Positions 2,641 through 56,527 of a DNA stretch of 64,000 bases are shown piece after piece; the first letter of the stretch is position 1, and each line of letters starts with the position of its first letter. Below the pieces are notes generated by a model. It made no database searches. It had not been told where the DNA came from and worked only from the letters and a program-made list of their open reading frames with translations. Origin of the DNA: Lama glama (Eukaryota); the NCBI GenBank assembly GCA_028534125.1, contig CM052827.1, forward strand, positions 34,410,001-34,474,000, in the 5' to 3' direction. Made by a program: the position numbers and the translations under genes.

Positions 2641-3185
2641 NNNNNNNNNNNNNNNNNNNNNNNNNNNNNNNNNNNNNNNNNNNNNNNNNNNNNNNNNNNN
2701 NNNNNNNNNNNNNNNNNNNNNNNNNNNNNNNNNNNNNNNNNNNNNNNNNNNNNNNNNNNNNNNNNNNNNNNNNNNNNNNNNNNNNNNNNNNNNNNNNNNN
2801 NNNNNNNNNNNNNNNNNNNNNNNNNNNNNNNNNNNNNNNNNNNNNNNNNNNNNNNNNNNNNNNNNNNNTGGGCGCAGTGCGCTANNNNNNNNNNNNNNNN
2901 NNNNNNNNNNNNNNNNNNNNNNNNNNNNNNNNNNNNNNNNNNNNNNNNNNNNNNNNNNNNNNNNNNNNNNNNNNNNNNNNNNNNNNNNNNNNNNNNNNNN
3001 NNNNNNNNNNNNNNNNNNNNNNNNNNNNNNNNNNNNNNNNNNNNNNNNNNNNNNNNNNNNNNNNNNNNNNNNNNNNNNNNNNNNNNNNNNNNNNNNNNNN
3101 NNNNNNNNNNNNNNNNNNNNNNNNNNNNNNNNNNNNNNNNNNNNNNNNNNNNNNNNNNNNNNNNNNNNNNNNNNNNNNNNNNNNN
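2641..3185. other. Assembly gap (N run with a 16-nt island at 2869-2884) covering the NUTF2 last exon
   Basis: N runs 2641-2868 and 2885-3185. Confidence 0.98.
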
Positions 3186-30663: not shown

Positions 30664-33600
30664 ATGGGCTGTGGGACAAGCAAGGTCCTTCCTGAGCCGC
30701 CCAAGGATGTCCAGCTGGACCTGGTCAAGAAGGTGGAGCCCTTCAGTGGCACTAAGAGCGATGTATACAAGCACTTCATCACAGAGGTGGACAGTGTTGG
30801 CCCCCTCAAAGCTGGTTTCCCAGCAGCCAGTCAGTGTGCAAATCCATTCCCTAGTGTGCCCCCTACTGGCCACACAGAACCTCCCTCAGAACCACCACGC
30901 AGGGCTAGGGTAGCTAAGTACAGGGCCAAGTTTGACCCACGTGTGACAGCCAAGTATGACATCAAAGCCCTGATTGGCCGAGGCAGCTTCAGCCGAGTGG
31001 TACGTGTAGAGCACCGGGCAACCCGGCAGCCATATGCCATTAAGATGATTGAGACTAAGTACCGGGAGGGACGGGAGGTCTGTGAATCAGAGCTGCGTGT
31101 GCTGCGCCGGGTGCGCCACGCCAACATCATCCAGCTGGTGGAGGTGTTTGAGACACAGGAGCGCGTGTACATGGTGATGGAGTTGGCCACTGGTGGAGAG
31201 CTCTTTGACCGCATCATCGCCAAGGGTTCTTTCACTGAGCGTGATGCCACGCGGGTACTGCAGATGGTACTGGATGGCGTCCGATATCTGCATGCACTGG
31301 GCATCACACACCGAGACCTCAAGCCTGAGAATCTGCTCTACTACCACCCAGGCACTGACTCCAAGATCATCATCACCGACTTTGGTCTGGCCAGTGCCCG
31401 CAAGAAGGGTGATGACTGCCTGATGAAGACCACCTGTGGCACACCTGAGTACATTGCCCCTGAGGTCCTGGTCCGCAAGCCCTACACCAACTCAGTTGAC
31501 ATGTGGGCCCTGGGTGTTATTGCCTACATCCTGCTCAGTGGCACCATGCCCTTTGAGGATGACAACCGCACCCGGCTGTACCGGCAGATCCTCAGGGGCA
31601 AGTACAGTTACTCGGGGGAGGTGAGTCTGCCCGTCCCAGGATGCTGAGAGGCCCCTGTGTGTGTGTGTGGTGTGGGGGGTTCTATCCTGCAGCCTTCAAT
31701 CAGGGGGATGTGCTCTGAAGGCCATGTTCTTGGGACCAGGCAGATAATGTAAAAATGATGAAGTGAGACTAGTAGAGTATCTTAGTTTGGGTTCTCTCAA
31801 AAGTGAAGCCTGAGACAAGGACTCGGGACTAGATAGTTTAATTATGATTCCAGTAAGCATAAGTGAAGAGTGGGGAAAGTGAGACAGAAAAGGAGAAAGA
31901 CAATAAGGGGTATAAGAAGGAGTGGACTGCCACTGTGGGCCACTGGAACTCAGTCCCACTGGGGACCCTGTGAATAATCATGTGAAACATACCTCAGAAT
32001 CATACCACTGAGAGGCAGGAAAGTGGGTGGGCTTAATCTGGCTCTGGTATGAGTTGAGAATTTCTTTGAGGTGAGCGGGGTCATTAAATCCCTGGCACTT
32101 TTGGGCTGTGCTGAATGCCACCTAGTGCTGGAGAAAGTCCTCAGGCAAAGAGGCAGAGAGATGCAGCAGTGTGAAGCTGTCTGCTCGCACAGGAGCACTA
32201 CAACTGCAGGCGAGCTCAGAGGTGGGCTGAGAGGAAGTGGGGACAGGGAGCCCACAACATCTCCTCATGAGTGCTAGGGCAGGCTAGTGACGATGCCCTG
32301 TCTAAAGGAACAGTTGCTTCTCATCTCTGCCCAGTTTTGACACAGCAGAGAGGACTCCATGCACCCAGACATTCCAGTTTTTTAAAAAGAAGCCAGAAAA
32401 TCTGATACTAAAATATTGGAATATAATTCACATACTTAAGCAATATCTTGTACTTAACCCAACAAAATGCTTACCTGCGGGCCTAATTCAACCGGCAGGC
32501 CATCAGTTTGTGTCTTTGGATCCATTGATAGCCCTGATGCCTGAAAAGATCTGTTAGGTTTCAGCACTGCTGGGAGCCAAAGGAAGGTACAGAAAAAGTA
32601 AGAACTGGTTGGTTCTTAGCCAGGATGCTGACTGGGTTGGAGATGAGGCTAACTACAGAAATGGTAAGCACTGCAAGCTGGAATATAGTGGTGTGCTTGG
32701 GGAGGTTGTGAAGAAAGAATGGGTGACAGCTTTATGTGGGAGGTGAGGTGAGCTTTGCAGGATGACAGGATTCTGCCAAGACAGCAAGGGCCCCTCCCCA
32801 AGTGCCCCCTGCAGAGTGCTCCCCACAGTGTTCCTCTCAGGCCTGCTGTCCTTGCCTCCTGAACAGCCCATGCAGAGGAGAAGGAGCTTTGGGACTAGCT
32901 TACTTCTGCAACCCAGCTTTCCTCCCAGGGATTTTTGGGCTGGGCCCTCCCTGGCCTCAGCCAACTGGTCCAGAGCAGTGTTTCCTACAGCAAAGTCTCA
33001 TGAAGGCAAAGTACCTTTAGTGCTTGAGATCCTGTGCACCATCATCCTCCCTGTCAGTTTCAGGGCATGGTTATGTGGTCAGCCAAGGACTTCCCTCCCG
33101 TGGGGAAGGGGGCTGGCATCATGTGCCAGGTCATGCGCCTCAGGATGGTGTGAAGAAGGGAGGAAGCCTTCCTCTCCAGGCCAGCTCTGTGCTGAGACTA
33201 CAGGTGAAGGAGAACCTGGGACATTCTCCAGCTCTCCCCTAAAGGTTTTTATGTTTTCTTCCTTGCTCCAAATGGGATTCAATAAAACAAACACTGACTG
33301 GCTTAGATACCTGGGCTGTAATGGGATGGTCACAGAGGACACTGTCCTTCTCACCCTCTGGGCTGGGTTTCATCATGGTCAGAATTCACCTCACAGGCAG
33401 TTTTGTGCCAGGGCCCTGTGTGACTTGCCCTTGGAGCTATGTGTGGTGTAGCTTAGCTGTGGGAGGGAGGGAGGGAGGGAAGTTTCCCAAGAGATGCTGA
33501 CAAAGGAAGACTCTTTCCAAAAGTCTGTAGATTGGCTCACGAGTTCCCGATTCTGGCAATTGTTGATGAGGCAGTTTATCTAATTGGAACTTGTAGAGTC

Positions 33601-36600
33601 TTGCTAACTGGTTATTGATTATCTGAGGGTGAGAGAAAGACAAATGAATGGGATAGGGAATGGACTCAGGCTTCTTGCTCCTATTGTGGCCACAGACTGG
33701 GTCCTGAGATTCTGCTTCCTCCTCTGCTAGAATCATGTGGCATGAGTCTGGGGCTCCCAGTGTAGGGGATGGGCACTGCCCAGCCCAGCGTTTGGAGCCC
33801 ACTACCCTTCACTTGAAGTTGAAAACCTCAGTTCCCAGTCCCAGAGTCAAATCCCTGACCAGCACTGACGGCACCTGTCTGTTACCAGGAGCTTGGTTGA
33901 CCCCAAGAGCAGATTCTACCACCATCTGCAGAGAGCTCTGATTGGGAAGAGTTTATTTGGGGTGTTTCCTGGGTGAGGAGATATCATCATTAAATCAGGC
34001 TCTTTGAGCTGGAGACCAGGTGTCTGTCTTTCTGTTTTGCTGGTCATTGTCTACCTGTAAGTGCACCTGAGGAAATGCAGAGAGACATGAAGGCCTATTC
34101 CCAATCCCCATGAAACTTGAGATTGTCTGGGAGAAAGGACTAGGAATAGAAAATGGCCACAGAATGAACCCTTGTTGGCAGGCACATGCCAGCTCAGGCC
34201 TGGGTGATCTGGAACATGGGCCATGGGGCTTGGGGCAGGTGGCTGGACTGGCCCCCCTTCTTAGGGTTGGGCTCTGTCCCTCCCTCATCCAGCAATCTGT
34301 CTTCTACTGTGTGATGGTCATTTACCCTTATGAAAGCCATCTAAGTGAGCAAGGCCCTGCCAGAAAACCTATCTGAGAGCATGCTGGATTGCGGGGGCTG
34401 TTTCTGTCTAGTTTCTTGCGCAAAGTTTGTGCCAGCTTTGAGCTCATCAAGGTTTGGAGGTATGCATTCTTTACCAATAGTAAGTCCTCTGGCACTCAGT
34501 GCCTTTCTCATAGGCACCTTGCCCGCTTATAGTGGTGTCTCATATACACCAGGCCCTATCCAGCGTGCTTATTTCTCAAGGGTTCTGTCCATGTAGCCTT
34601 CTATGATTTCTGTGGACTTGAATGGAAGGCTTCCTGGAGGGGGTGGGCTTTGAGAAGGAGAAGGCTCAGAGAAGGCAACATCGCTAACTGTGCTCCAGAA
34701 TAAACAGATTGTTTGGGAGTAATGGAACAGAGGTTAATGAGGTTGGACCAGGCCTGGTGTTTGCTTCTGGGAGCTCTGTGGTGCCAGGGATTATTTGGGA
34801 AATCAAAGCATTAGGTGGGAGGGAGCCCTCTGGGTTCTTGATAGTGAAGGGGAAATGTAGCAGGAACTGTTGCGGAAGACTAGCGGGGGAAGGCTAACTG
34901 GGGGCTGTTGGAGTAATCCAATTTTAGGATGGAGGAGCCTGGTATCCTGGGGATGTTTGGGGCAGATGGGGAATTCCAGAGACTGAGCTCCACATGGTAC
35001 ATGTGAGCCACAGCTGAGGGAGAGACAGGGTGGGGCACAGAACGCTCTTGCAGCTCTGCAGGAGGAGCATCAGCTTATGAGGCAGATTGGGAGAGGACTT
35101 CAGGCTGCCCTCTGACCCAGAGAGTGTGTACGTCCTGCCTGATGTCCCTGCATGGGGACCAGCGGTGGAGGGAAGCACAGAAGTGGGCCCTCCTTCAGCA
35201 CCTGCCCTATAAGCACAACGTTCTAGATACTCTAACCCCTAGCTCTGGCCCCACACTCCACCCCATTCCCTACATACTGTAGGCCTGAGATGTTTGCTCC
35301 TTTCACTCCCCACTCTATGCTTTTGCTCAGGCTTTTCCCTCTGTTCCCAATGTCAGCCTTAGAAATTTGACCAGCTCTAAACCATCCAATTCAGTATTGC
35401 TTCCATTAAACATAATGCCAACCACTGCCATTGTGTAGTTCTACTGAGTACCAGGCACAGGTCTGAGGGTTCTACATCCAACATGTCTAATCTCTACAAT
35501 AATCTTCCCAGTGGGTGTAATCCCCCCATTTTACAGATGAGTAAACTGAGGCCAGTGAGGTTAAGTAACTTGTCCAGGGTCTCATAGAGAGGGAGGCAGG
35601 CCTGGGATTTGAATTCAGGCCATCTTGGCTTCAGAGTTCTTGGCCTTTCCATCCCCACAGTCTACTTTCCCTGACACACATTCCTCACTGTGTTGCTGGG
35701 GTCTGTTTCAGCACTTTGCCAGGCTATTGTCTGTGGACATAACTCTCCTCCCCAGCCTGTAAGTTCCTTGAGGACAGCATGTGTATCAATACATATACTC
35801 CCAGTACTTTCTCCTCCTTTTCCTAATTGAAGCACCAGTGGTTATTGGTGATGCCCTGGGAAGGACCCAGAAGTGAATAGCTGTCAAGCAGACAGGGCTG
35901 CTCCTGCTGGCTGGGAATGTTCTCTTCTGGGAGCTGGACTCCAAGAAGTGGGACGCCTGCTAGAGATGTACTTAGGGGCTGCTGGCCAGGCCTAGTTAGA
36001 AGGAAATGCAGGAATCTTGGAAGAGAAGAGAGTGCTGGAAAGGAGAAGGCTGTGACAAATGATTTTGAGAGGAGAAATCTGAAATTTTACCCAGTGACCA
36101 GAGGTGCTGGAGGGGAGAGAGCCAAGCTAGGGTCGTATTGGAAGTGATGGGGAGACACATGTTGGCCAGATGTGAGGAAGGCCTGTGTGAGTGTGAGAAC
36201 AATTTGTAGACACAGAGTCATCTTGAAAGAGGGCGCTTCCTGTCATAGGAGGCCCTGGGAGGTCTAGAGCAGCTGCTTCTAGAGGAATGACACAGGAGGT
36301 GAGTCACCATCTTTGTACCCTACTAGAGGACTGTTATGGTCCCATCAACTTGGAAATTCTGTGATTCACTTGACATGAAATGTGACGTTGTGGGCCTAAT
36401 GTCATTGCTTTTGTCAAGAGTTCTATTCCTAGAGGCAGGATGGATGAAGGGGCCCTTGTGGGATTGATGACAGAGTGATGCCATCAGTAGCTTTGCTGTC
36501 TGCCACGTTTAGCAATCTTTAATTGTCACCCTCCTCTGCTTGAGTAGTCTCTGAGCTGTGGGCGAGCCCAGGTGACTGTACCAGGAACAAGTGGGCTTGG

Positions 36601-39600
36601 GCAAAGGTTCTCACCAAACCTTATTCAGGAGAGTAAGTGCTGCTGGGCAGGGTACAGAATCCTGGTGGGAGAAGAAGCCAACCTGCAGGGCTGGTCTGCC
36701 ACTTCCCGGAGGATTGGGTTGGTGGGAGGTGGCTTTCCAGGAGTGGCTCTCCAGGCTGCAAGCTGACCATCCATCCATTTGGGCCAAGGGGCACTTGCTT
36801 GGGGCAGTGAGTTACACTGTCTGGTAGTTCTGATAGCCCTGCGATAGGATGATTGCCCAGAGCCAGAGTTGACATTCACATTCCCATCCCAGCTCTTCCC
36901 CAGTCCGTAAAGTGACTCTGACACTTGTTGAAGATAAAATGAGGTGCAGCGAGTGTAGTGTGTCCCAATGCTCTCCAGGTGAAGGGGGCCAGCACCTGTG
37001 GGGACTGGACGTGCAACCTTGTTCATGTACTCTGACAGGAGCAGCTGGGTGAGCAGGGATAGGACCTTGCCCCAGAGCCATGGGGACGAATACCCCATGG
37101 GTGTGGGAGAGCTGGAGACCGGATGTGTGCAGGCAGCAGAGTGGAATGCAGGGAGGCGGGTGGCATGTTTCCAGGCTCGTGCTTGGCTTCTGCCGGATGC
37201 CTTTAATTGTCTCATGTTCCCACCTCCAGTGTGGATGGGGGCTGTGGTGGACCATCAGCTCACCACTCTTCTCTTGCTGCCCACCCCCAGCAAGTCAGAG
37301 GATGGCTTTCCCGTATCTGTGTCAATAGCTGACAGCACAAGAAAACAGACTGATTTTAGAATTCTTTCCTATGAAGCTCTTCCTCCTTGCCTGTCTGCTG
37401 GTGGCTGCTAGGTGTCAAGTGCTGGATGGTAATGCTGGTTCTATGTGAGGATCCCAGGTGGCCAAGTAGATGCCCCCATAACTTGTCCAGGAAGGTTCCC
37501 TCTGGAACGGCCATTCTACCTCACCAAAGCTGGTACCCAGTGGATGTTCAACAAATAAGTCTCCCTCATTTACTGAGGGAGCAGACACCCTCAGTCCAGA
37601 TCCCTGACTGGTCACTGGGAGGTAGCATGGTTTGGTCCACTGGGTATGGGCAGTGGACCCTCACTGGTCACTGTGGTTGGAGACCTCTTGGAGGAAGGTG
37701 GGGTAGCTCTCTCTTCGTCGGGGCAGGAGGCAGGCTCTGAGTGGAGAGGGGCAGCAGCCCCCTCATGTGCCACCCTTGGGTCACCTCTTGGCTTCCTGGA
37801 GCCCTGTCCTATAGGCATCCCTCTGCTGTTGCTGTCCTGGTTGCAGAAACAGATGTCCACCTCCCCACATTGCTGCATTTAGCCATTTTTATCAAAGCAC
37901 CTTGCTCTGACTACCTACGGCATCTCGTTGACACAGGGTCAGAGCCTCCTTTCATCACTGCTATTTCCCAGCTCTGCTGAGGCCTCTCCAACAAAGTGGT
38001 GTATCGTGGGTTGTATTCAGGCGGCTCCCAGTGTCCCATCCGTCCCCTCCCTCTCGTACTCTTCTCATTGTCTGTCTCCACCTGGGTAGGTCTGCCCTTT
38101 CAGAGTTGCTTTTGCTTCTGTTGCGTCTAGGCCTTCAAGTTCCTCTGGGAGCTGCTGGGGCTGCTGTTTCTCCCACATTCCGACCTCTTTAAATCTGCTG
38201 CTGGCCTTCCACATTATCCCCCTCCTGTCCCCACTGAGATGGTTGAGGGTGACCTGATCCAACCACACCCCACCAGGTGTGTCTCTCTAGCCTCCTTCAC
38301 ACAAGGTCACCCTTCTTGTGCGTGTCTTCCTGGCCTCGGTTTCTCTGCCTCCCAGTGCAAGTGTAGTGCCCAGACCTGACTGTTGCTCCTGCATGGTTTG
38401 GCTGGCTTGGGGCACAAGGCTGAGTCACCTTCATTTCTTCATTCATCTTGCCATCCCATGGAGACCAAGTGCCTGTCCTGAGCTGAGTCCTGTACCAAGG
38501 GTTCCAGGAACACAGACCTCTGGGGACAGAGGCCACAGTATGGGTGACCTGCTAACAGCCACCAGGGATGCAAATTGTCTCAGAAATTAGAATGAGAGAA
38601 AGTTTAAAAAAAAAAGAGCCAGGTTGAGCCCTGGAAATCACCTCACTTCAGCAGAACCCTTGAATGGAGACAGAAAAGAACACCATGCAGCTGGCTCTGA
38701 AATCCAGAACCTTCTAGGGCTGCTCCAGGACATTGTTAAAGCAGACATTACTTGGTTGCTGGCATAGGTTGCCAACATCTCTGATTCCAAAGCAAGCACA
38801 CAGCATCCTTCCTGACTCTTGAGTTGTAACCCACTCCCTCATGTCCTTGTCCTTCACTTTGTGGACTCTGGGCAGGGACAGGTGGGGTGCAAGATTTCAT
38901 TTGGTTATTCACCTCAAGTTTTAGAATACAGGTCTACTAACCTTTAAGTTGTCGCACCTTTTCTCATTTTTATCTTCATTCTCTGCCTCTTTTACAAACT
39001 ATTATCTTCCTTCTTTTTCTCCTCTCATGCTCTCTCCCCCAACATCCTTTTCTTTTCTGCTGCTCAGACCCCCACCCATCCCCTGCCAGGTCCCAGGGTG
39101 GTGGATTCTGTCTGGTGTTAGAAGTCCAGACACCAGGAGGGTGAGTATCTTAACCAGAGGAGGGGATGCTGGCTCCACCAGCACACAGTGTCTAATTCTG
39201 CTTATTTTTTCAAAGCACTTTTCCTCATGGTCAACATCAGAGTGTGCTGTTCTTGTCATACTGATCATTCTGCTCTCCCGAGTAAACATGAAGCTCCATT
39301 TCCCAGAATTTCCTCTGTGCCCTTTTCTCTGCTCTCATTTAGGCCCACGTAAGTACAGGAAGGAAGCCTGTGAGGGTGGGAATGCTGGGTCTGAGAACAC
39401 ATCTTGAGACAAAGCTGAGGGAAGAACTGAGTCATGGGAGCAGAGTCCAGGCTTTTTTCCTCCCTTCCTTCTTCCAGCAGCTCTTTGCTGTGGCTTCCTT
39501 CTCTGCCAGAGAACCTTCGCCAGAATCATCATGGGCTGGAAAAGAATCCATAGAGGTCAAGAGGTCAAGTCAGCTGAAATGTTACGTGCTCCTCACATGC

Positions 39601-42600
39601 AGCCAAGTGAGGAAGAAAGATGGGGAACCATCTTTTTAGAATCCAGGACTTTAGAAACTAGAAGAGACTTAGAATTCATTGCATTAATATTAAAAGTGAG
39701 GAGGCTGTGATTTCTCTATGGTCAACAGAGAAGGTAGACCTAGAATGCAGGTCATTGGGCTTGCAGCCCAACACTTACTCTGTCACCCAGATGCCATCCA
39801 GAAGAAACACAATGCCTTTTTCTCCCCTCATTTGCAAGTGGTCAGGCCTGTCTAGGGCAAGCCCTGTGAGCTGAGTTTGCTGTTAGAAGGAGGCAGCTTC
39901 CTCCTCCCTCTGCAGCCTAGGCCAAGAGAGTTGGTTCCAGCCTTTGTTCCCTTAGCCCTTGGACTCAAGGCAGGACAATGGTAGTGACTTGAGTAATGTT
40001 ATTGCCAGGCCCTTATGCCATTAGAGCAAGTAAATGGGGCTGGGGCAGAAGGAAGTGTGTCCTCTGAGCTGGAATGGAAAGCCCCTTCTGGTCTGGTGCC
40101 TCCCTCTGAAGGGGGAGTTAGATTCTGCTGCGGAGGAATGACTAGTCCCACAGAAGCAGAGGGATAAAGAGGGTGAAGTTGATAAGAAAGTGCTCATGGT
40201 GGAGGTTCTTCCTCTACCCTGTTGGCCTCTCTGCTGTTACAGCATCAGAACTACATACCCAAAATGCAAGGACTCTAGGGGTTACAGGCTAGGGAGAAAG
40301 GCAGCCAGTTTGATGGTCAGAAACAGTGGGGAGGTGATACCCTTTCTCCCATAGCCTCTCTTGTCCTCCTCTTGGGGCAGAACCCAGCTGCTTACTCACA
40401 CAGCTCAGAGATTTGTGGCCAGGAGGGTATGGGCTGTCACCCTGGTTGTTGCAGCTGTCCTCTGATCACACAGCAGAGGGAGACCTGAGTGTCTGGAGGC
40501 AAGCAGTCTGACATTTTAACATTCCCTTCCATGTTCCATGCCAGCCCAGAAACAGGTGGAAGCCTCTGGGAGACCGGCCAGGTGGTACTTCGGGCCTGTC
40601 CCTTTTGTCAGCCACCTGTGATCCACATGTGTCCCTGATCTGGGCCCAAGTATACTGAGGCAAGTGTTCTGTCCTTTACCCACAGCCTGCAGTTAGGAGC
40701 CGAAGGACATGACAGTTGACCATTTTTCTTCTTCTCATACCTATTTTTTTTTCCTCACTTGGCTGCCTGTGAGGAACAGAAAGCTACCTGGCCAGTTAGT
40801 CATAGGCTCCCAGACATACTCTTGTGCTCTTGGTGGCTCCAGAGACCCGCATATGTTGGGGAAGGAAATGGGTTGGTCTGCAGGAGTTGACTGCTTTCTT
40901 AGGAGGTACTGAATGGACTTAGCCAGAATCAAGGCCATGGGTGAGTGTGGAAAGCCTTGTTTTTCCTTTTTGAGCCCTGTTCGAGGCCTCAGCTGGGCTC
41001 CCAGGGGCCACTGTTCTGGAGGTCAACATAAGTTCCTGCCCCGATGTCAGTGGGCTGACTTGAAGACCACCTTCCTATGTTCAGCCTGTTTGACTTCCTG
41101 CTGCAAGTCAGTGTGTTCCTCAGTGTGTGAGGGTGAGGCTGGGTACCATTGCACAGCCCGGTTCTCAGGTCAGGACGCTGAGTCACATTGGCTTAGGGGA
41201 CCCACCTGGTCTAGCTGCTCACAGCTCTTTAAACATGGGGAGATCTGGGGCCTGCCAGAGAGGAGGGTAGGCTGGCCCTCCAACTAATGAGCCCGTTGGC
41301 ATTCTGCACACAGCTGCAGGTACACAGTAATTGGAGAGGCGAATGTCTAGGGGAGGAGGAGGGGCAGATCAATCTGGCTCACTTTGGCGCTAATGGCAAC
41401 AAGCAGCAGGGGTTGATGCCTAGTGTGAGCCTGTGTCACTCTGGAGATGCAGATGCTTAAGCCGTGGTGCAAGTCTGGTGAGAGGCCCATCTAAGACTGC
41501 ACTGGAGCTGCAGGGGGCCTTGGTTTGGCTGGGTATGGATGTGAAGTGAGGATGCCTCTGATCCATCCATATTCAGGTTCCTGACTTGTGAGTCCAGCTT
41601 TGCCTCTATTTATTTTGTCATCTGCAGAGGAGTTGCCCCTCTTCTCTCTTGACTGGAGCAAGGGCCAGGAGCAGAATCCATGTCCCAGCCCTGTTTGGCT
41701 AGCCTGGGCTGCCAGCTCTGTTTGGAGCTGCCCCACCAACAGGCCAGGCTGAGCTGCAGTGTGCTCCCCAGTGATTTCTCCTTTTCTTGGAGACCATAAA
41801 AGCTGACAGGGCAGCACAGTATTCTCATGACCCAACCTGTTCCAGCTTTAGGTTTGCTGTGGCTATCAGTGGCCCCATTATGCCTGCTTCTTTCCATCTC
41901 TCAGATGAATGACAGGGGCCACAGTGAGTGTCTGTGGTCTAGGTTGGCTGGCCCCTCATAATGGCTCTTTGTGTTCAGGTGGCAGCAGCAAGCCATGGGT
42001 ACCAGCCAAAATCTACTATGTGCCTGTCCAATTCAGTCACCCTGCAGGTTGGCCTCATTACCAGAGCCCTGAGCTACACAGGCCTGCAGGGAAATATGAG
42101 TGAGTGTCCTTTACCCTGAGGACCTGAGATTCAGCCCGGTGACAAGCTGTGCAGGCTGAGGGCTGGAGGTGGATGGCTGCTTGGTGTGTGGCTGAGACAA
42201 AGCAGCTGTGGGTGCATGTAGTAGAGCAGGCTTTGATCAGCTCCTCTGTGAGGACAGCACATACTAAAATGAGGCTGGCACAGGGCACTGCCAGGAGCCA
42301 CTGTCTGGCTTAGAGATGTCATGCAGACTGGAGAAATGCCCTGAGAAGGGTCCTGGTCCCTGCCAGGGTCCCATGTCCCCCCTGCCCTCTCAGCAGATGG
42401 AGAAATCTAGTTGCCTTGAATTGTTTCCTTCTCTCCCCATGGCTGAGAGGCTGAGGCTGATGTAGAGAATGCAGTGGTCATTTTGACCACTTTGTCAGTT
42501 GGAAGGAGGGTGGACTTTGTCTTTAAGAACTAGGAAGTGGCTTGATATGGGCATTCAGGGGTGGGAGCTTAAGTCTGGCTCAAGATATGGTGGAAGGTTT

Positions 42601-43292
42601 GGACCATTCTCATTAAATTTCTCTGAGTTATACTGGTCCAAGGGTAGGTTGGGTGGTCTTGACAGGGGCCACTTTCCTGAGCCAGACTCTGAGTCCCGGG
42701 CACCTTAGAAGTTTGCTTCTTGGGGAGGGAGCAGGTCTTTCTCCCTTGTCAGACTCCTCACCCAGAGAGCAACCTCTGCTCAGCGGCCTGGGCCAGCATT
42801 GGCAGAAGGGGAAGCCTAGAACGTTCTACATGGGAGGAGCCAGGCAGCGCCTCTCTCTGGGAGGAGAATGCAGCAGGGCTGCTGGACAGGTCTGAGTGCT
42901 GTGGTGGTGACATCGTCAGGATGGGGAGGGCAGTGTTAAATGCACTCACTCTAATACTTGTCGTTGGCCTCTAGCCCTGGCCCAGCGTGTCCAACCTGGC
43001 CAAGGACTTCATTGACCGCCTGCTGACAGTGGACCCCGGCGCTCGAATGACTGCACTGCAGGCCCTGAGGCATCCATGGGTGGTGAGCATGGCAGCCTCT
43101 TCATCTATGAAGAATCTGCACCGCTCCATCTCCCAAAACCTCCTCAAACGTGCCTCGTCGCGCTGCCAGAGCACCAAATCTGCCCAGTCCACACGTTCCA
43201 GCCGCTCTACACGCTCCAACAAGTCACGCCGTGTGCGGGAGCGAGAGCTGCGGGAGCTTAACCTGCGCTACCAGCAGCAGTACAATGGCTGA
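30664..43292 (+). CDS. PSKH1: Serine/threonine protein kinase H1 (CAMK group), 2 coding exons, 424 aa
   Basis: Coding 30664-31620 (MGCGTSK acylation motif, [24 protein letters not shown]) plus 42975-43292 ([17 protein letters not shown]...YQQQYNG*). Exon 2 acceptor at 30593/4. Confidence 0.97.
31778..32266. mobile_element. Ancient ERVL-class solo LTR (LTR33/LTR41-like; subfamily uncertain)
   Basis: Begins tcttagtttgggttctc...cctgagacaaggactc...gtggggaaagtgagacag...ccactgtggg, typical of these old LTRs. Confidence 0.5.
35430..35660. mobile_element. MIR SINE (approximate limits)
   Basis: 'cccattttacagatgagtaaactgaggcc...ggttaagtaacttgtccagggtc...gggatttgaattcagg' canonical MIR core. Confidence 0.8.
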
Positions 43293-45240: not shown

Positions 45241-45246
45241 AATAAA
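45241..45246 (+). terminator. PSKH1 poly(A) signal ending a ~2-kb 3'UTR
   Basis: AATAAA preceded by U-rich/UGUA elements (ttatttattttgtgtac, tgtaaatgta). Confidence 0.85.
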
Positions 45247-45530
45247 CAGGCTGCCTTCCCCAGGGAAGGCTGCCCATTCATTCTGACAGCCCAGTCTCCT
45301 TGCTGTGGACCAAGGGGTTGCCAAGGAGGTGGGGGAGCCCAACCTGGTCTTGGCTAGTCTGGGAGGATCCTGACTCCTCAACACCTGCCATGCCAGAAGA
45401 CAAAGTCAGTGTGTGGAGTGGGACTCCCAAGAGCCTCTCCTTTTCCCTGAGCCAGGAAGACAGGAATATACAAGAGGACAGAGCCTGGGGTCTTTACTGG
45501 ACTGAGATGGGGAGAGGGCCTCTGGTGGGC

Positions 45531-47354
45531 TCAGTTGTAAGCTATGCCTGATTGACCCAGGTGCTGAACTTGCTAACCTGAGCGTACGTGGCAGGTGCAC
45601 ACACATTGCAGTCACTGGTGCCCCGGGAAACAATACTAGTAAGCACCCACACATTCCCATTCTGGCTGATAAGAGGACCTCTGGAGTCATTCCTGAGGGG
45701 AAGAAGGGCGAAGTCAGCGTGGGGGGTGCAGGGTGCCACAAGGTGCAGAGTACAGGATGGGGTGCTGTGCTCACCTGGCACAAGGAGGCCCTTGAAGCAC
45801 TTGCACAAATCATGGAGTTGGTGATGTGTGAGCCCCAGAACTGCTGGCATTGACTCACGGTGACCAGGGGCAGAACCACCTGCTGCAGGCATGCCGGAGT
45901 CACATTGTCTATGGGCCAAGAGGGGGTGGTTAGCCCCCAGATGACTTGTCCCCACCCTACACTCCCATCCAGATTTTTGATCCAAGTTCCTACTCATGCC
46001 ACTGAGGCGGCCCCAGCCAGTGGTGACACACGTGAGGCCTTCAGGCAGCACCTCATTTGAGGAAGCCAGGCAAACTGGTGAGATACATGTTGTGTACTGG
46101 GCTGGGGAGGCGAGCTTCAGTAGTGTAAGATCATTATTGATGGTGGTGGGTTCCAAGAGGGGTGCGTGATGGCCTGTGGAGCCAGGAAGGGGCCATGTAG
46201 GATGGGAGTGGGCACAGGCCCCCAGGTAATGGGTGCTGAGGAGGCTAGGCTAGGCATGTCCTGAATTCCTCATCCCCAGAGCCCACACACCTGCACCACC
46301 CACTCTTCCCTATCTGCAGCCCAGGGACTCACCCGAGAGATGGACAGAACCTGCAAAGTCTCAGCACTGGATGATGGGTTGTACTCGCCCAGGATGACAA
46401 AGTGGCTGCAGTAAGAGTGGGGTTGGGCAGCCGCAGGGAGGGCAGAGTGACAAGAGAGGGGCATCCAGGACAAAGGAGTTGAGGAGGTGTGGACTGGGGT
46501 GGGGCAGGTAGAGGGGAAGCACTCACACAACATTGCAGTAGGCAGCAATGACCATCCAGGCCTGGCTGCTGAGGGAACCACCGCAGAAGTGAAAGTCTTT
46601 GCTGTCCTGGGTTCAGGGGTCAGACATACGGTGCACTCAGGCTATGCCTAGGCATGAAGCACCTGGGATCTTGCCCCACCCGCAGGGTGCATGTACCTGC
46701 AGGGATACCTGGCAGGGCCAGGAGCCCAGCACTACCTTCTCCCCATTGACAGCCCTCTAGCTGAAGCTCAGCACCGGTTTGATGGCAGGAACACTGCAGC
46801 CTGCCATTGGGCTGGTGAGGACCTGTTTCCCACATCCCAGCCTACCTCTCACCTCCTCCTGGGTGTCCCCAGGGTAAGCCCCCTAGAGGGGTCCAAATCG
46901 AGAAGACTCATTACGCCTTCTCACCCTTAGCACCTCTGGGCCTGTAGCTATCTCAGCTGCCTGCATCCCTAGCCTCCAGGTTCTGTCCGTTCTCCCACAT
47001 CTCTCCAACCTACTCCCTACCATTTCTCAATTCCACCCCGACCCCCCAGCCCAGGCCATCTTTCTCCCTGATCCCTGGGATAGTCTCCTCCCTAGCCTCT
47101 CTACCCACTCCAGATTTCAATGATCCATACCTTGCATGCAGGTTAAGGGCTCTTCCTAAACTACAGGTCCAACCATTGCTTCTCAGCTTCCTAAACCCTC
47201 CCCCTGGGCCTGGCCAAGCTCCTGTCCCATTTGTGGGATTGCCTACCTCTTGCTTCCTCCCAGCCCTGGCACATCCTTTTTCCTCTGCCCATTCTGTCTA
47301 CCTGCTTTCCTTCAAGCCAGCTGAGGGGCCAAGGGTCAGTCTGAGCAGCAACAT
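45531..47354 (-). pseudogene. CTRL: Chymotrypsin-like protease CTRL, disabled unitary pseudogene (7 exon remnants)
   Basis: Exon remnants: ~47327-47354 (MLLLRLTLG, then similarity and donor lost), 46697-46800 (in-frame TAG at 46757-46759), 46527-46606 (AAHC changed to AAYC), 46333-46405, 45994-46173 (1-nt deletion near 46149), 45775-45908, 45531-45692 (extra nt at start; GDSGGP changed to xDSRGP; 1-nt deletion near the end). Confidence 0.9.
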
Positions 47355-48249
47355 TGTGATAGGCATGAGGCTGAGAACTGGGCCTGGCTTTATGGCATTC
47401 CTTGTCCTTGGGCCTAAGGCCAAGCCAGCTGTGTAGGTTCAGCCCCCTCCCATGCTCTAGTCAGGAGGAGGGTCTCTTTAGGCCGAGGTCCTTGACCCAG
47501 GCCCTGACTTACTGGAGTCCAGGTGTGAGGTTCCCATCTCCTTCACTCTCCTAAAGCCTGGCCTATGACTGGCTCCTAGAACCACCTCACATCCTAAGTA
47601 CTGAGCACCAGTTACCAAGGAATTAAGGTTAGACTTACAGTGACTACCTGGTGGCTGGGATCAGGAAAGTCTCCCAGGCTATCAGGGACACCAGACTCAG
47701 AGAAGCCTGCTGAGCACCCAGGGGTGTTCTGACTGGTGGAGGGAAACTCCAGCTGTTACCAGCTCCACTGTTGAGGGCCAGGGCCATGTGGCCAGGTCAG
47801 GGGTTCTGGCAGGTTGCATATCCTAACATATCATTTCAGTGATTCCTCATCAGTTTGGAACAGGAGTCACAGTTTGCTTAGAGATGGTGACTCTCCCACT
47901 ACAATGTTCATTTGGACCCAAACCTTTATCTGCCTTGCTCCGAAGCCCATACTCTTCGTGATGAGATGATACCTGGAAGGGGCCTGGTGTACAGGAGGGC
48001 AAGGTGTGATGCTCGACACTGGATGGGGGTCACAGGTGGAAGGGTGACAGCCGTCAAATCTTTGACAGCTTCCAGGCCTTGGGGTTCCCATGGACAAGCC
48101 CCTGCTATCTACAGCCCATTCATTGTAGAGCTCCAGGCTGAGCCTGAACTGAGGGAGAGAAGACGCTCCTGTGTACAAAGCTGCAATAGGTTAAGTTGGC
48201 TGGCCTCCTTCGAGGGGTATGAGGACTTTGAATGATTCAAGAACGTTAT

Positions 48250-49272: not shown

Positions 49273-51680
49273 TCACTCCACATCCATGGCCTGCACCGTT
49301 TCCTCCAAGAGCTCCAGGGTCAGTGGCATCACTGTTTCGGACAGGACGGCTGTGGTCCCAGGGACAAAGCGGTACTGGCTGGACCTGGGAAGGAGAAGGG
49401 ATGACCTCGCAACATGGGCCCATCACGTGGCCCATCCTCTCTTTGCAGCCCCCTATCTCCCTTGCTACCACCCCATCCTCCCCTGTGGTCCCCCGTCTCC
49501 ATGCTCCTACCTTTCTATGGGCTTTGTGGGAGAGCTCAGTGTTCTCAGCAGCTTGGCACCAGTCCCCGTGATCACACATGCATCCACACTGCCCCCAGAG
49601 CCCAGGTCACCCAGGATCCCTGCAGTGATGGCTTCCACTAGCAGCCCCTGTGCTGCCTCCAGCTGTAATGATGTGTGTGTATATGAAGCTGGGTGGACCC
49701 TTCTGGTATCACCCTCAGGCTACAACCTTGAGACTTTGTTAATCTTTAAGCCTGGACTACTTACCATTTGCTCACACCCAAACCCTTCTCTTCCCCTACA
49801 CCCCCGTCTCCACCCCAAGCTCCTCTTTCTTTGTTTTAGGTTTCCTTCTCTCCAGAGACCCTGTGTTCCCACTGCCCCCCATCTTCACAAACTACTCTGA
49901 GTCACAGATATGGCTCTTGCCTGTCCACCCACCCAAGGTGGTCTTAGCCCCCGGACCCCGGCTCACTGCCTTTTTCTTTCTGGGCCTTAGACAGCTTTGA
50001 AGCAACGTCTTCTGCTTCCATCCACCACAAACAAAATCCACCAGCCCCCACCTGCTAGTCCCTCCTCCCTCAGCTCCAAATGGTTCTCTCTGACTTTCGA
50101 CTTCTGGAGTGCAGTCCAAGCTTTGGCACTGACAGTGGTCTGCTGGAGTAGCACTTCTCCACCCTCACTCCACTGGCCCCTCAGTCTCCACTTAGTCGTC
50201 ACCTCCCAGAAGCCCTTCCCGACTTCCAGACTAGGCCGGGGTACCTCTACGTTTCCCCAGCTCCCGGGGGGACTTCCCACCAATGCACGCAGAGTGGGGG
50301 GCGGGTGTCGCTCACCGTCATGTTCGGCTGGAACCGGTCCTCCAGCACTGCCAGGGCTGCGTCTTGGCCGGAGCCTGCAGGCAGGAGGGGTGTCTGAGGT
50401 TAGCCTCGGCCGCCCCGTCGCGGGACAAACGTGAGGCCAGGGTCACATGGGCGGGGTTCGTGGGGAAGGGGCGCAAGTGCTTACCCAGGGCCGTGAAGGG
50501 CAGACGGCTGTAAGAGCCATGGGGGTGCACGCTGTAGAGCTGCGGCCCTGTGAAGTCTACGCCACCCACGATCAGCGAAGCCCCGACGTAGCCACGGTAC
50601 CTTTTCGCGGAGTGGGCGCAGTCAGCCGAACGCACACGGATCCAGGTCCCGCCTCTCCACTATTCCACCCCTGAACCGAGCCCCGCCCCTTCCCGTGGTC
50701 TTGCGCCCCATGACCAGCATCGCTTCTTCCTGTTGCTCTCTTAGCTCCTCTTAGGCCCGCCTCTTCCGGTCTCCCAGACCCTCGCAGCCTGGCCCTTTTT
50801 CCTGGTTTACCTCCTCAGCCCCGCCCTCCCCGCAACTGCCCCTCCCCAGAGTCATCTTAGTCCTGCCCCAATACCGGAAGAGCGTCTGGCGAAGGATGCG
50901 CGTGACCGTGGCCACTCGGGGCTCCCTGCCCGTGGACAGCGTGTGTAACTCTATGTTGGACGCCGCCATCCGCGTGGTCATCTCGGCGTCCGCGGCTACT
51001 CCAGCCCCACAGCAGCTGAGGGTGAAGGGAGGGTCAGTATGGGCGGGGCTAGGATGTGCGGGGACTCGGGATGGGAACGATGGGGTGGTTCTTGAGTGGG
51101 GGAACCAGGCCCGGGAATTCTCACTAGATTTTGGGGGCGATGAAGTGGATCTTTTCGCAGCTCTTGTCCGCCACGACTGAATCGTCAGTGGCCCGCGTAT
51201 CCGCGCCCAGTATGACCCCGTCCTGGGGAGAGGGGCGAAGAGGAGGAGCCGTTGGCTCAGTGCCCACCTCCCATTGCCGGCCGGCCCACTAAGCCGCACA
51301 GTCCAATTCCCTGCTCACTTGGAACACAAGGCCTGCGATGGTGGTCCCGGTCTTGCGTGCATGAGGGACCCGGAGCCCCGGGAGGGCGCGTTCCAAGGAT
51401 GCGTTTCTGAAAACAGAAGAGAGTGGCCCAGGTTTCAGTTCTTCTGGGACCCCATCACATCCCTCGACTCCTTCCTGGTCTCCCTCACCTGGGGAAGGCC
51501 TGGGAATCCAAGTCGTACAACACACGTACCCTCCCCCAAACTCGCCCCAGTAATTTTAAAGGCTCTGGGACTCTCACTCCCGGATGCCCTCACAGCATTC
51601 GGGACCAACCATCCCCTAACTGACCTCTGGCAGTTACCGAAGGAGAAGCCCCCTCGGGGCTCTAGCGCCTTCTTCTGCAT
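49273..51680 (-). CDS. PSMB10: Immunoproteasome subunit beta-2i (MECL-1), 8 exons, 273 aa
   Basis: Exons 51625-51680, 51319-51406, 51125-51222, 50875-51015, 50485-50600, 50316-50374, 49511-49662, 49273-49384 total 822 nt. Propeptide junction KTG|TTIAGLVF with catalytic Thr intact. Confidence 0.96.

Positions 51681-53172: not shown

Positions 53173-56527
<3,355 letters not shown>

Follow-up and report, generated by a model that had tools for sequence, protein, structure and literature searches.

In the mouse, the pancreatic chymotrypsin-like protease CTRL accounts for about 10% of chymotrypsinogen and cleaves trypsinogens; its knockout lowers chymotrypsin activation by about 25%, raises trypsin activation by 15% and is mild, pancreatitis being no worse (accessible text of PMC7366634). 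The full-text literature yielded published CTRL losses for no mammals other than vampire bats and the howler monkey. All vampire bats have lost the gene (bioRxiv 10.64898/2026.07.24.740446; also PMC8956264), with a Ka/Ks of 1.09 against 0.20 for the bat background. In the howler monkey, CTRL was lost together with six other pancreatic genes (PMC13651202, in part). Moreover, convergent losses of the pancreatic genes PNLIPRP1 and SYCN are described for herbivores (main points of PMC6386725).

Here we analyzed a 64,000-nucleotide stretch of the llama (Lama glama) genome, hereafter the window, in which a sequence-only reading had claimed that CTRL is dead. We found that camelid CTRL is a genuine and ancient pseudogene, most likely unitary, for which parallels are already known. 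Similar to vampire bats, in which Ka/Ks is near 1, the same gene is inactivated at the orthologous locus and a RefSeq coding model persists. By contrast, the bat loss goes with a blood diet and bat-specific lesions, whereas the camelid gene has likely been dead for most of a 39-44 My stem. The howler monkey is likewise a leaf-eating mammal, in which several pancreatic genes were lost, but a primate. The repeated independent loss of a diet-linked gene of the exocrine pancreas recalls PNLIPRP1 and SYCN, except that the losses of CTRL also include carnivorous whales and vampire bats. Compared to intact eutherian CTRL (CTRL-1, peptidase S1A, PF00089), the window copy shares the seven-exon layout and matches three intact CTRL proteins at 176, 171 and 177 of its 241 aligned codons, a resemblance that is not due to chance. 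It differs in lacking a signal peptide and an open frame, and in 6 of the 21 key residues.

CTRL lies between PSKH1 and PSMB10/LCAT on the same strand as PSMB10, which is the orthologous position. In human, the gene order around CTRL is PSKH1, CTRL, PSMB10/LCAT. CTRL, PSKH1 and LCAT also fall into one pig/human interval (PMC12447022, in part). Among the matches listed, the best named ones are mammalian CTRL models rather than CTRB or CTRC; a PDB search returned only chymotrypsin and other S1 proteases and no CTRL (best 60 of 260). Pfam confirmed the kinase, proteasome and LCAT families in the neighboring genes. The two flanking genes, claimed to be intact, indeed have open frames over ten exons without error, and slightly different splice choices also left the frames open.

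Several other features of the neighborhood were observed. The 3' ends of PSKH1 and CTRL converge tightly: downstream of PSKH1, the sequence scanned has a single AATAAA, at 45241-45246 (+), ~250 bases from the CTRL hexamer. The hamster and panda models P0013, P0039 and P0049 join or label PSMB10 with CTRL, and P0013 and P0039 have both PF00227 and PF00089, which suggests read-through transcripts across this tight gene pair. The window has three assembly gaps (2641-2868, 2885-3185 and 55303-55442; 669 N in total), none of which is inside CTRL.

Table 1. Coordinates of CTRL and its flanking genes in the window.
Feature	Position	Strand	Description
PSKH1	30664..43292	+	two coding exons (30664-31620, 42975-43292), open 424-aa kinase
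CTRL polyadenylation hexamer	45493..45498	-	AGTAAA; AATAAA inferred for baleen whales (3' read-through of P0004, P0048)
CTRL exon 7	45531..45692	-	+1 at start, Gly196Arg, Cys201Ser, Trp215Arg, -1 near 45547; all common to dromedary P0006
CTRL exon 6	45775..45908	-	134 nt; frame intact, six amino-acid changes, five common to dromedary
CTRL exon 5	45994..46173	-	180 nt; -1 frameshift in C run 46150-46148, upstream of Asp102 codon
CTRL exon 4	46333..46405	-	73 nt; in-frame, three codons (9 nt) missing at start
CTRL exon 3	46527..46606	-	80 nt; catalytic His57Tyr, TAC at 46540-46538
CTRL exon 2	46697..46800	-	104 nt; nonsense TAG 46759-46757, Ile16Ala, Trp29Cys
CTRL exon 1 remnant	47298..47354	-	nine codons, rest of signal peptide and donor gone, in-frame TAG 47300-47298
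Promoter remnant	47389..47452	-	TGGGAGG (47452), E-box CAGCTG (47431), TATA-like CATAAAG (47394); motif scan
PSMB10	49273..51680	-	eight exons, spliced to open 273-aa proteasome subunit

To call the lesions, the minus strand of 45300-47700 was read, the exons were translated, and exons 2-7 were aligned to the three intact CTRL proteins by a script that tolerates frameshifts. Residues are numbered as in chymotrypsin. From the ATG at 47354, exon 1 reads MLLLRLTLG followed by non-homologous sequence up to the TAG; the lost half of the signal peptide was sought in three frames of 47400-46790 and is absent there (best score 14, compared to 51 for self). Ruminant models retain MLLLRLTLSLVLLGSSWG at this part of exon 1. 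The TAG of exon 2 replaces a Gln two codons upstream of the activation site, where IVNG has become AVNG. The start of exon 4 is three codons shorter than in all three intact orthologues, and the shifted frame of exon 5 runs into a stop at 46119-46117. Exon 7, with its acceptor AG at 45694-45693, begins with GAA TGA owing to the extra base (stop at 45689-45687), which puts the Ser195 codon out of frame; the ancestral stop is 45533-45531. In sum, exon 1 is truncated, exon 2 holds a stop, His57 is Tyr, 9 nt are deleted and the frame is shifted three times. All of these, including the IVNG change and the residue changes of exon 7, had been claimed before and were found again here, to which Trp29Cys and the AGTAAA hexamer are added.

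The splice sites of exons 2-7 all still have AG/GT ends. A processed (retro) pseudogene was rejected, as the introns between exons 2-7 are retained with these ends. Upstream of exon 1, 14 bases separate TGGGAGG from CAGCTG in the promoter remnant, a putative decayed site that resembles the pancreatic PTF1 element.

Examined as an S1A chymotrypsin, the window CTRL fails in its signal peptide and reading frame, in its catalytic triad (His57 is Tyr; the codons of Asp102 and Ser195 are present yet out of frame), and in the activation site Arg15-Ile16 and the conserved disulfides (Ile16Ala, Cys201Ser). It cannot yield a secreted active enzyme.

The lesions of exons 6-7 are also seen in the dromedary. 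The Camelus dromedarius model P0006 (131 aa) has both exon-7 frameshifts and the active-site changes of the window, and its opening peptide is encoded at window 47787, which places it at the same locus. Residues 1-10 of this "CTRL-1" equal window 47787-47757 (-) joined to exon 6, a join that is likely a gene-finder artefact. In addition, the open reading frame P0043 shows the same exon 6-7 lesions in another frame, with dromedary-like states at two sites. Over the 91 codons of exons 6-7, the part for which sharing among camelids was assessed from protein models, 14 changes are common to window and dromedary, three are found in the window only, one in the dromedary only, and one site differs in all three sequences; window and dromedary thereby differ at five of the 91 codons, which marks the window as camelid but probably not Camelus, as expected of a South American camelid. 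Inactivating lesions at the orthologous locus are hence shared in exons 6-7 by P0006 and P0043.

For a check against sequencing runs, 200 words were sampled from 45480-47400 (1921 bases) and 24 runs were listed. Fourteen of them, under four organism labels, contain 0.96-1.00 of the words, and ten of these fourteen were flagged as a possible source and set aside. The four non-flagged runs are X9 and X12 at 0.98 (study P5) and X13 and X14 at 0.96 (study P4, which also contains flagged rows). Fractions of 0.96-0.98 correspond to about 1-3 differences in 1921 bases, so that X9, X12, X13 and X14, judged from these words, must carry most of the lesions. Assembly or sequencing error might be suspected from the three gaps in the window and from one frameshift in a C run, but two other camelid-type sequences share the lesions of exons 6-7, the ten exons of the flanking genes are free of errors, and 14 of the 24 listed runs, including the four non-flagged ones, reach at least 0.96 of the words. 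We consider such error to be very unlikely. The claim that CTRL in this camelid is dead, and that its loss is old and real, was borne out by the lesions shared with P0006 and P0043, the open flanking genes and the four non-flagged runs.

Five RNA or possibly RNA runs (X15-X19) contain 0.33-0.35 of the words, which fits a relative at about 96.5% identity; X20 (0.06) and X21-X24 (0.00) were not counted as evidence. This fraction equals the expectation for the whole intron-containing stretch, which may stem from PSMB10 read-through or from DNA carry-over. Transcription of the locus may persist in a relative, and the RNA rows cannot separate it from DNA carry-over; none of the 24 listed runs was recognizable as pancreas.

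The main evidence against a loss comes from RefSeq. In Table S1 of PMC9210794, seen in part, CTRL mRNAs are listed for 4/4 camelids (alpaca and all three Camelus species), 11/11 cetaceans, 2/8 ruminants and 0/3 equids, with denominators taken from the CPB1 list of the same paper, and also for Desmodus. However, NCBI models are described as correcting nonsense and frameshift changes (accessible part of PMC12127551). The camelid models weigh little, because Desmodus, whose loss is published, is listed as well and because stops and frameshifts are corrected by NCBI. The coding entries of the four camelids would also suit a dead duplicate in the window, with a second, intact CTRL at another camelid locus. 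The window copy, however, retains introns and follows PSMB10 immediately in the same orientation, like the hamster and panda models. Three protein searches (120, 120 and 43 matches listed, cluster representatives only) showed no camelid-named full-length CTRL among the matches listed, which is a weak point against a duplicate. We regard a duplicate as highly improbable.

To assess the constraint on the gene, we compared residues that are otherwise invariant. Over exons 2-7, the window is changed at 24 of 142 such residues, compared to 0-7 of 144-151 in leave-one-out controls with 12 full-length eutherian models; the test is conservative, as the reference models of red colobus and bamboo lemur are possibly decaying. 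On the camelid branch there are 36 nonsynonymous changes in 543 sites (237 codons; dN 0.069) and four synonymous changes in 62.7 sites (94 codons; dS 0.067). The dN/dS is rough, as dS rests on only four changes and its third positions were inferred from off-frame protein models. Equal dN and dS point to an early loss. In exons 6-7, 15 changes fall on the stem and five in the crown, and the stem changes amount to 98 My of change at the crown rate (95% interval 34-344), compared to a stem length of 39-44 My. CpG sites decay fast early on, which would inflate the stem count. Both sets of counts are small; they fit a loss early on the camelid stem.

The accessible text of PMC12127551 puts the split of Old and New World camels at 16.3 Mya and the separation of camelids from other artiodactyls at 55-60 Mya. 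As the lesions are common to the window and the dromedary, the loss predates the Camelus/Lama split (16.3 Mya). The loss would thus lie before 16 Mya and probably much earlier still, and the gene likely died tens of millions of years ago.

Altogether, we propose, at a probability of roughly 86%, that CTRL stands at its normal place without encoding an active protease, having likely died on the camelid stem as a minor redundant chymotrypsin no longer under selection, and that it has likely evolved neutrally since. Weak selection on a redundant, tissue-restricted isoform would have lapsed, and lesions would then have built up by drift. Digestion and the control of trypsinogen would fall to other chymotrypsins (CTRB and CTRC, both putative in camelids). 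Ruminants and cetaceans, and probably hippos, would have undergone the same relaxation independently, while the pig kept its gene. Plant fermentation, once adopted, could plausibly have permitted the loss, at slightly less than even odds. Loss might instead have been adaptive, in that an animal without a trypsinogen-degrading enzyme would have a bigger trypsin pool for microbial protein, as the cleavage of trypsinogens and the ~15% gain in trypsin activation in mice would allow (PMC7366634, in part) and as has been proposed for vampire bats (bioRxiv 10.64898/2026.07.24.740446, in part). The mouse effect, however, is small and was measured in induced pancreatitis, and drift accounts for the data; we consider an adaptive loss quite unlikely.

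Comparison with other artiodactyls was made on automated protein models, not DNA, of three ruminants, seven cetaceans, hippo and pig. Of the 21 key residues, reindeer, muntjac and yak retain 14, 18 and 15, respectively. All three models have Ile16Thr and Pro198Leu, are broken at the Cys136 codon and go off frame at the end of exon 4. Gene lists of goat and cattle, as far as accessible, have PSKH1 followed by PSMB10 without CTRL (PMC11874128, PMC12171144). In six of the seven cetaceans (sperm, gray, blue and minke whales, narwhal and vaquita) the frame switches late in exon 5, a stretch that is skipped in the fin whale model. Exon 6, when read off-frame, agrees with the sperm, gray and fin whale models at 28-30 of 35 aligned residues, after which these models regain the frame. 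Judged from the cetacean models P0005, P0010, P0042, P0047, P0048, P0089 and P0202, whale CTRL appears to have a frameshift late in exon 5 and a compensating one in exon 6, which leave a long open frame with a scrambled segment of about 50 residues. Fin whale, narwhal and vaquita have Cys in place of Ser195. The hippo model is labelled LOW QUALITY PROTEIN and keeps 20 of the 21 key residues. Over the invariant sites of exons 4-7, hippo is changed at 12 of 101, the window at 15 of 100 and the pig at one of 101, the last inside the 0-7 range of the 12 references. By parsimony over the same exons, pig has 11 amino-acid changes against 22 for the camelid (P = 0.065), a weaker contrast than that of the invariant-residue test. 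Exons 2-3 of the pig model read off-frame without gaps against the window. The pig has likely kept CTRL.

Residue 16 (window 46753-46751) is Ala in the camelid, Thr in hippo and the three ruminants (P0024, P0194, P0197, P0198) and Ile in whales. A single loss shared by artiodactyls was rejected: no frame-breaking lesion is common to the camelid, ruminant and whale models, and the pig is clean. From this we infer at least three independent losses, in camelids, ruminants and cetaceans. The missing named CTRL of ruminants and horse in the profile search was rejected as evidence, as the human and horse representatives are missing too. The earlier description of the loss as lineage-specific was too narrow, since different lesions have broken or eroded the models of ruminants, cetaceans and hippo, and losses in vampire bat and howler monkey are published.

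These patterns raise the question of diet. Loss might be a specific effect of foregut fermentation in every artiodactyl with a multi-chambered stomach, through the flow of pre-digested microbial protein. In favor of this, breaks or decay mark the models of camelid, ruminants, cetaceans and hippo while exons 4-7 of the pig are clean, the cattle and goat gene lists described above are without CTRL between PSKH1 and PSMB10, and the red colobus model has two single-codon gaps; cetaceans also have multi-chambered stomachs (PMC5100049, in part). However, the pig is the only clean contrast among artiodactyls. CTRL is also lost in blood-feeding bats (PMC8956264; bioRxiv 10.64898/2026.07.24.740446) and the howler monkey (PMC13651202), and the 0/3 equids of the RefSeq list (PMC9210794), although an absence only, point in the same direction.

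Outside artiodactyls, 17 further models were inspected. The rabbit model is broken, Asp102Gly occurs in owl monkey and Gly196Arg in both siamang and bamboo lemur, all of which argue against a specific role of the foregut; the rabbit is a hindgut fermenter. Seven of the 17 are unchanged at all 21 key residues (red colobus, bilby, opossum, bank vole, sand rat, ground squirrel and dog), and the remaining six are gapped, partial or off-frame. The marmot and degu models keep 21/21. Signs of decay outside artiodactyls were noted in models P0055, P0020, P0019, P0135, P0035 and P0046. We find the foregut explanation doubtful. The link to herbivory or foregut fermentation suggested in the sequence-only reading is at most plausible: neither whales nor vampire bats are herbivores, the rabbit model is broken, and plant-eating rodents keep CTRL.

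Corrected models of a broken gene might also mislead tests of selection. Positive selection on CTRL is reported for five of six freshwater cetaceans, with no sites in common and with alignments that tolerate frameshifts (accessible part of PMC13433582, 2026). If the exon-5 shift is ancestral to whales, the signal in river dolphins is likely a pseudogene artefact, for which FFAR1 in vampire bat is a precedent (PMC8956264, in part). On balance we lean towards a broader picture in which CTRL is dead in essentially all artiodactyls other than the pig, through at least three independent events and likely a fourth in hippo, hidden by auto-corrected RefSeq models, with the dolphin signal an artefact. 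If true, CTRL would be a recurrently lost pancreatic gene missed by genome-wide diet screens.

In the full-text literature, excluding subscription papers and the TOGA/Zoonomia tables, we found no report of CTRL loss for camelids, ruminants or cetaceans. CTRL has no occurrence in the text and nine supplementary files of PMC6386725 and is absent from the supplements of PMC6760925 and PMC12127551. The TOGA/Zoonomia tables or subscription papers probably record these losses as data, and the artiodactyl-wide pattern, together with the annotation trap, is probably unreported so far. This trap consists in the use of broken CTRL models as functional, one dataset having four camelids and 11 cetaceans (PMC9210794, in part).

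The llama locus is one more instance, ancient and clearly marked, of pancreatic protease genes being lost again and again. Physiologically, only a modest amount is at stake, given that mouse CTRL is a minor isoform. The diet question becomes testable, with peccaries as the key contrast. Our findings suggest a natural CTRL knockout across most livestock (camelids, cattle, sheep, goats and deer), as against the intact pig.
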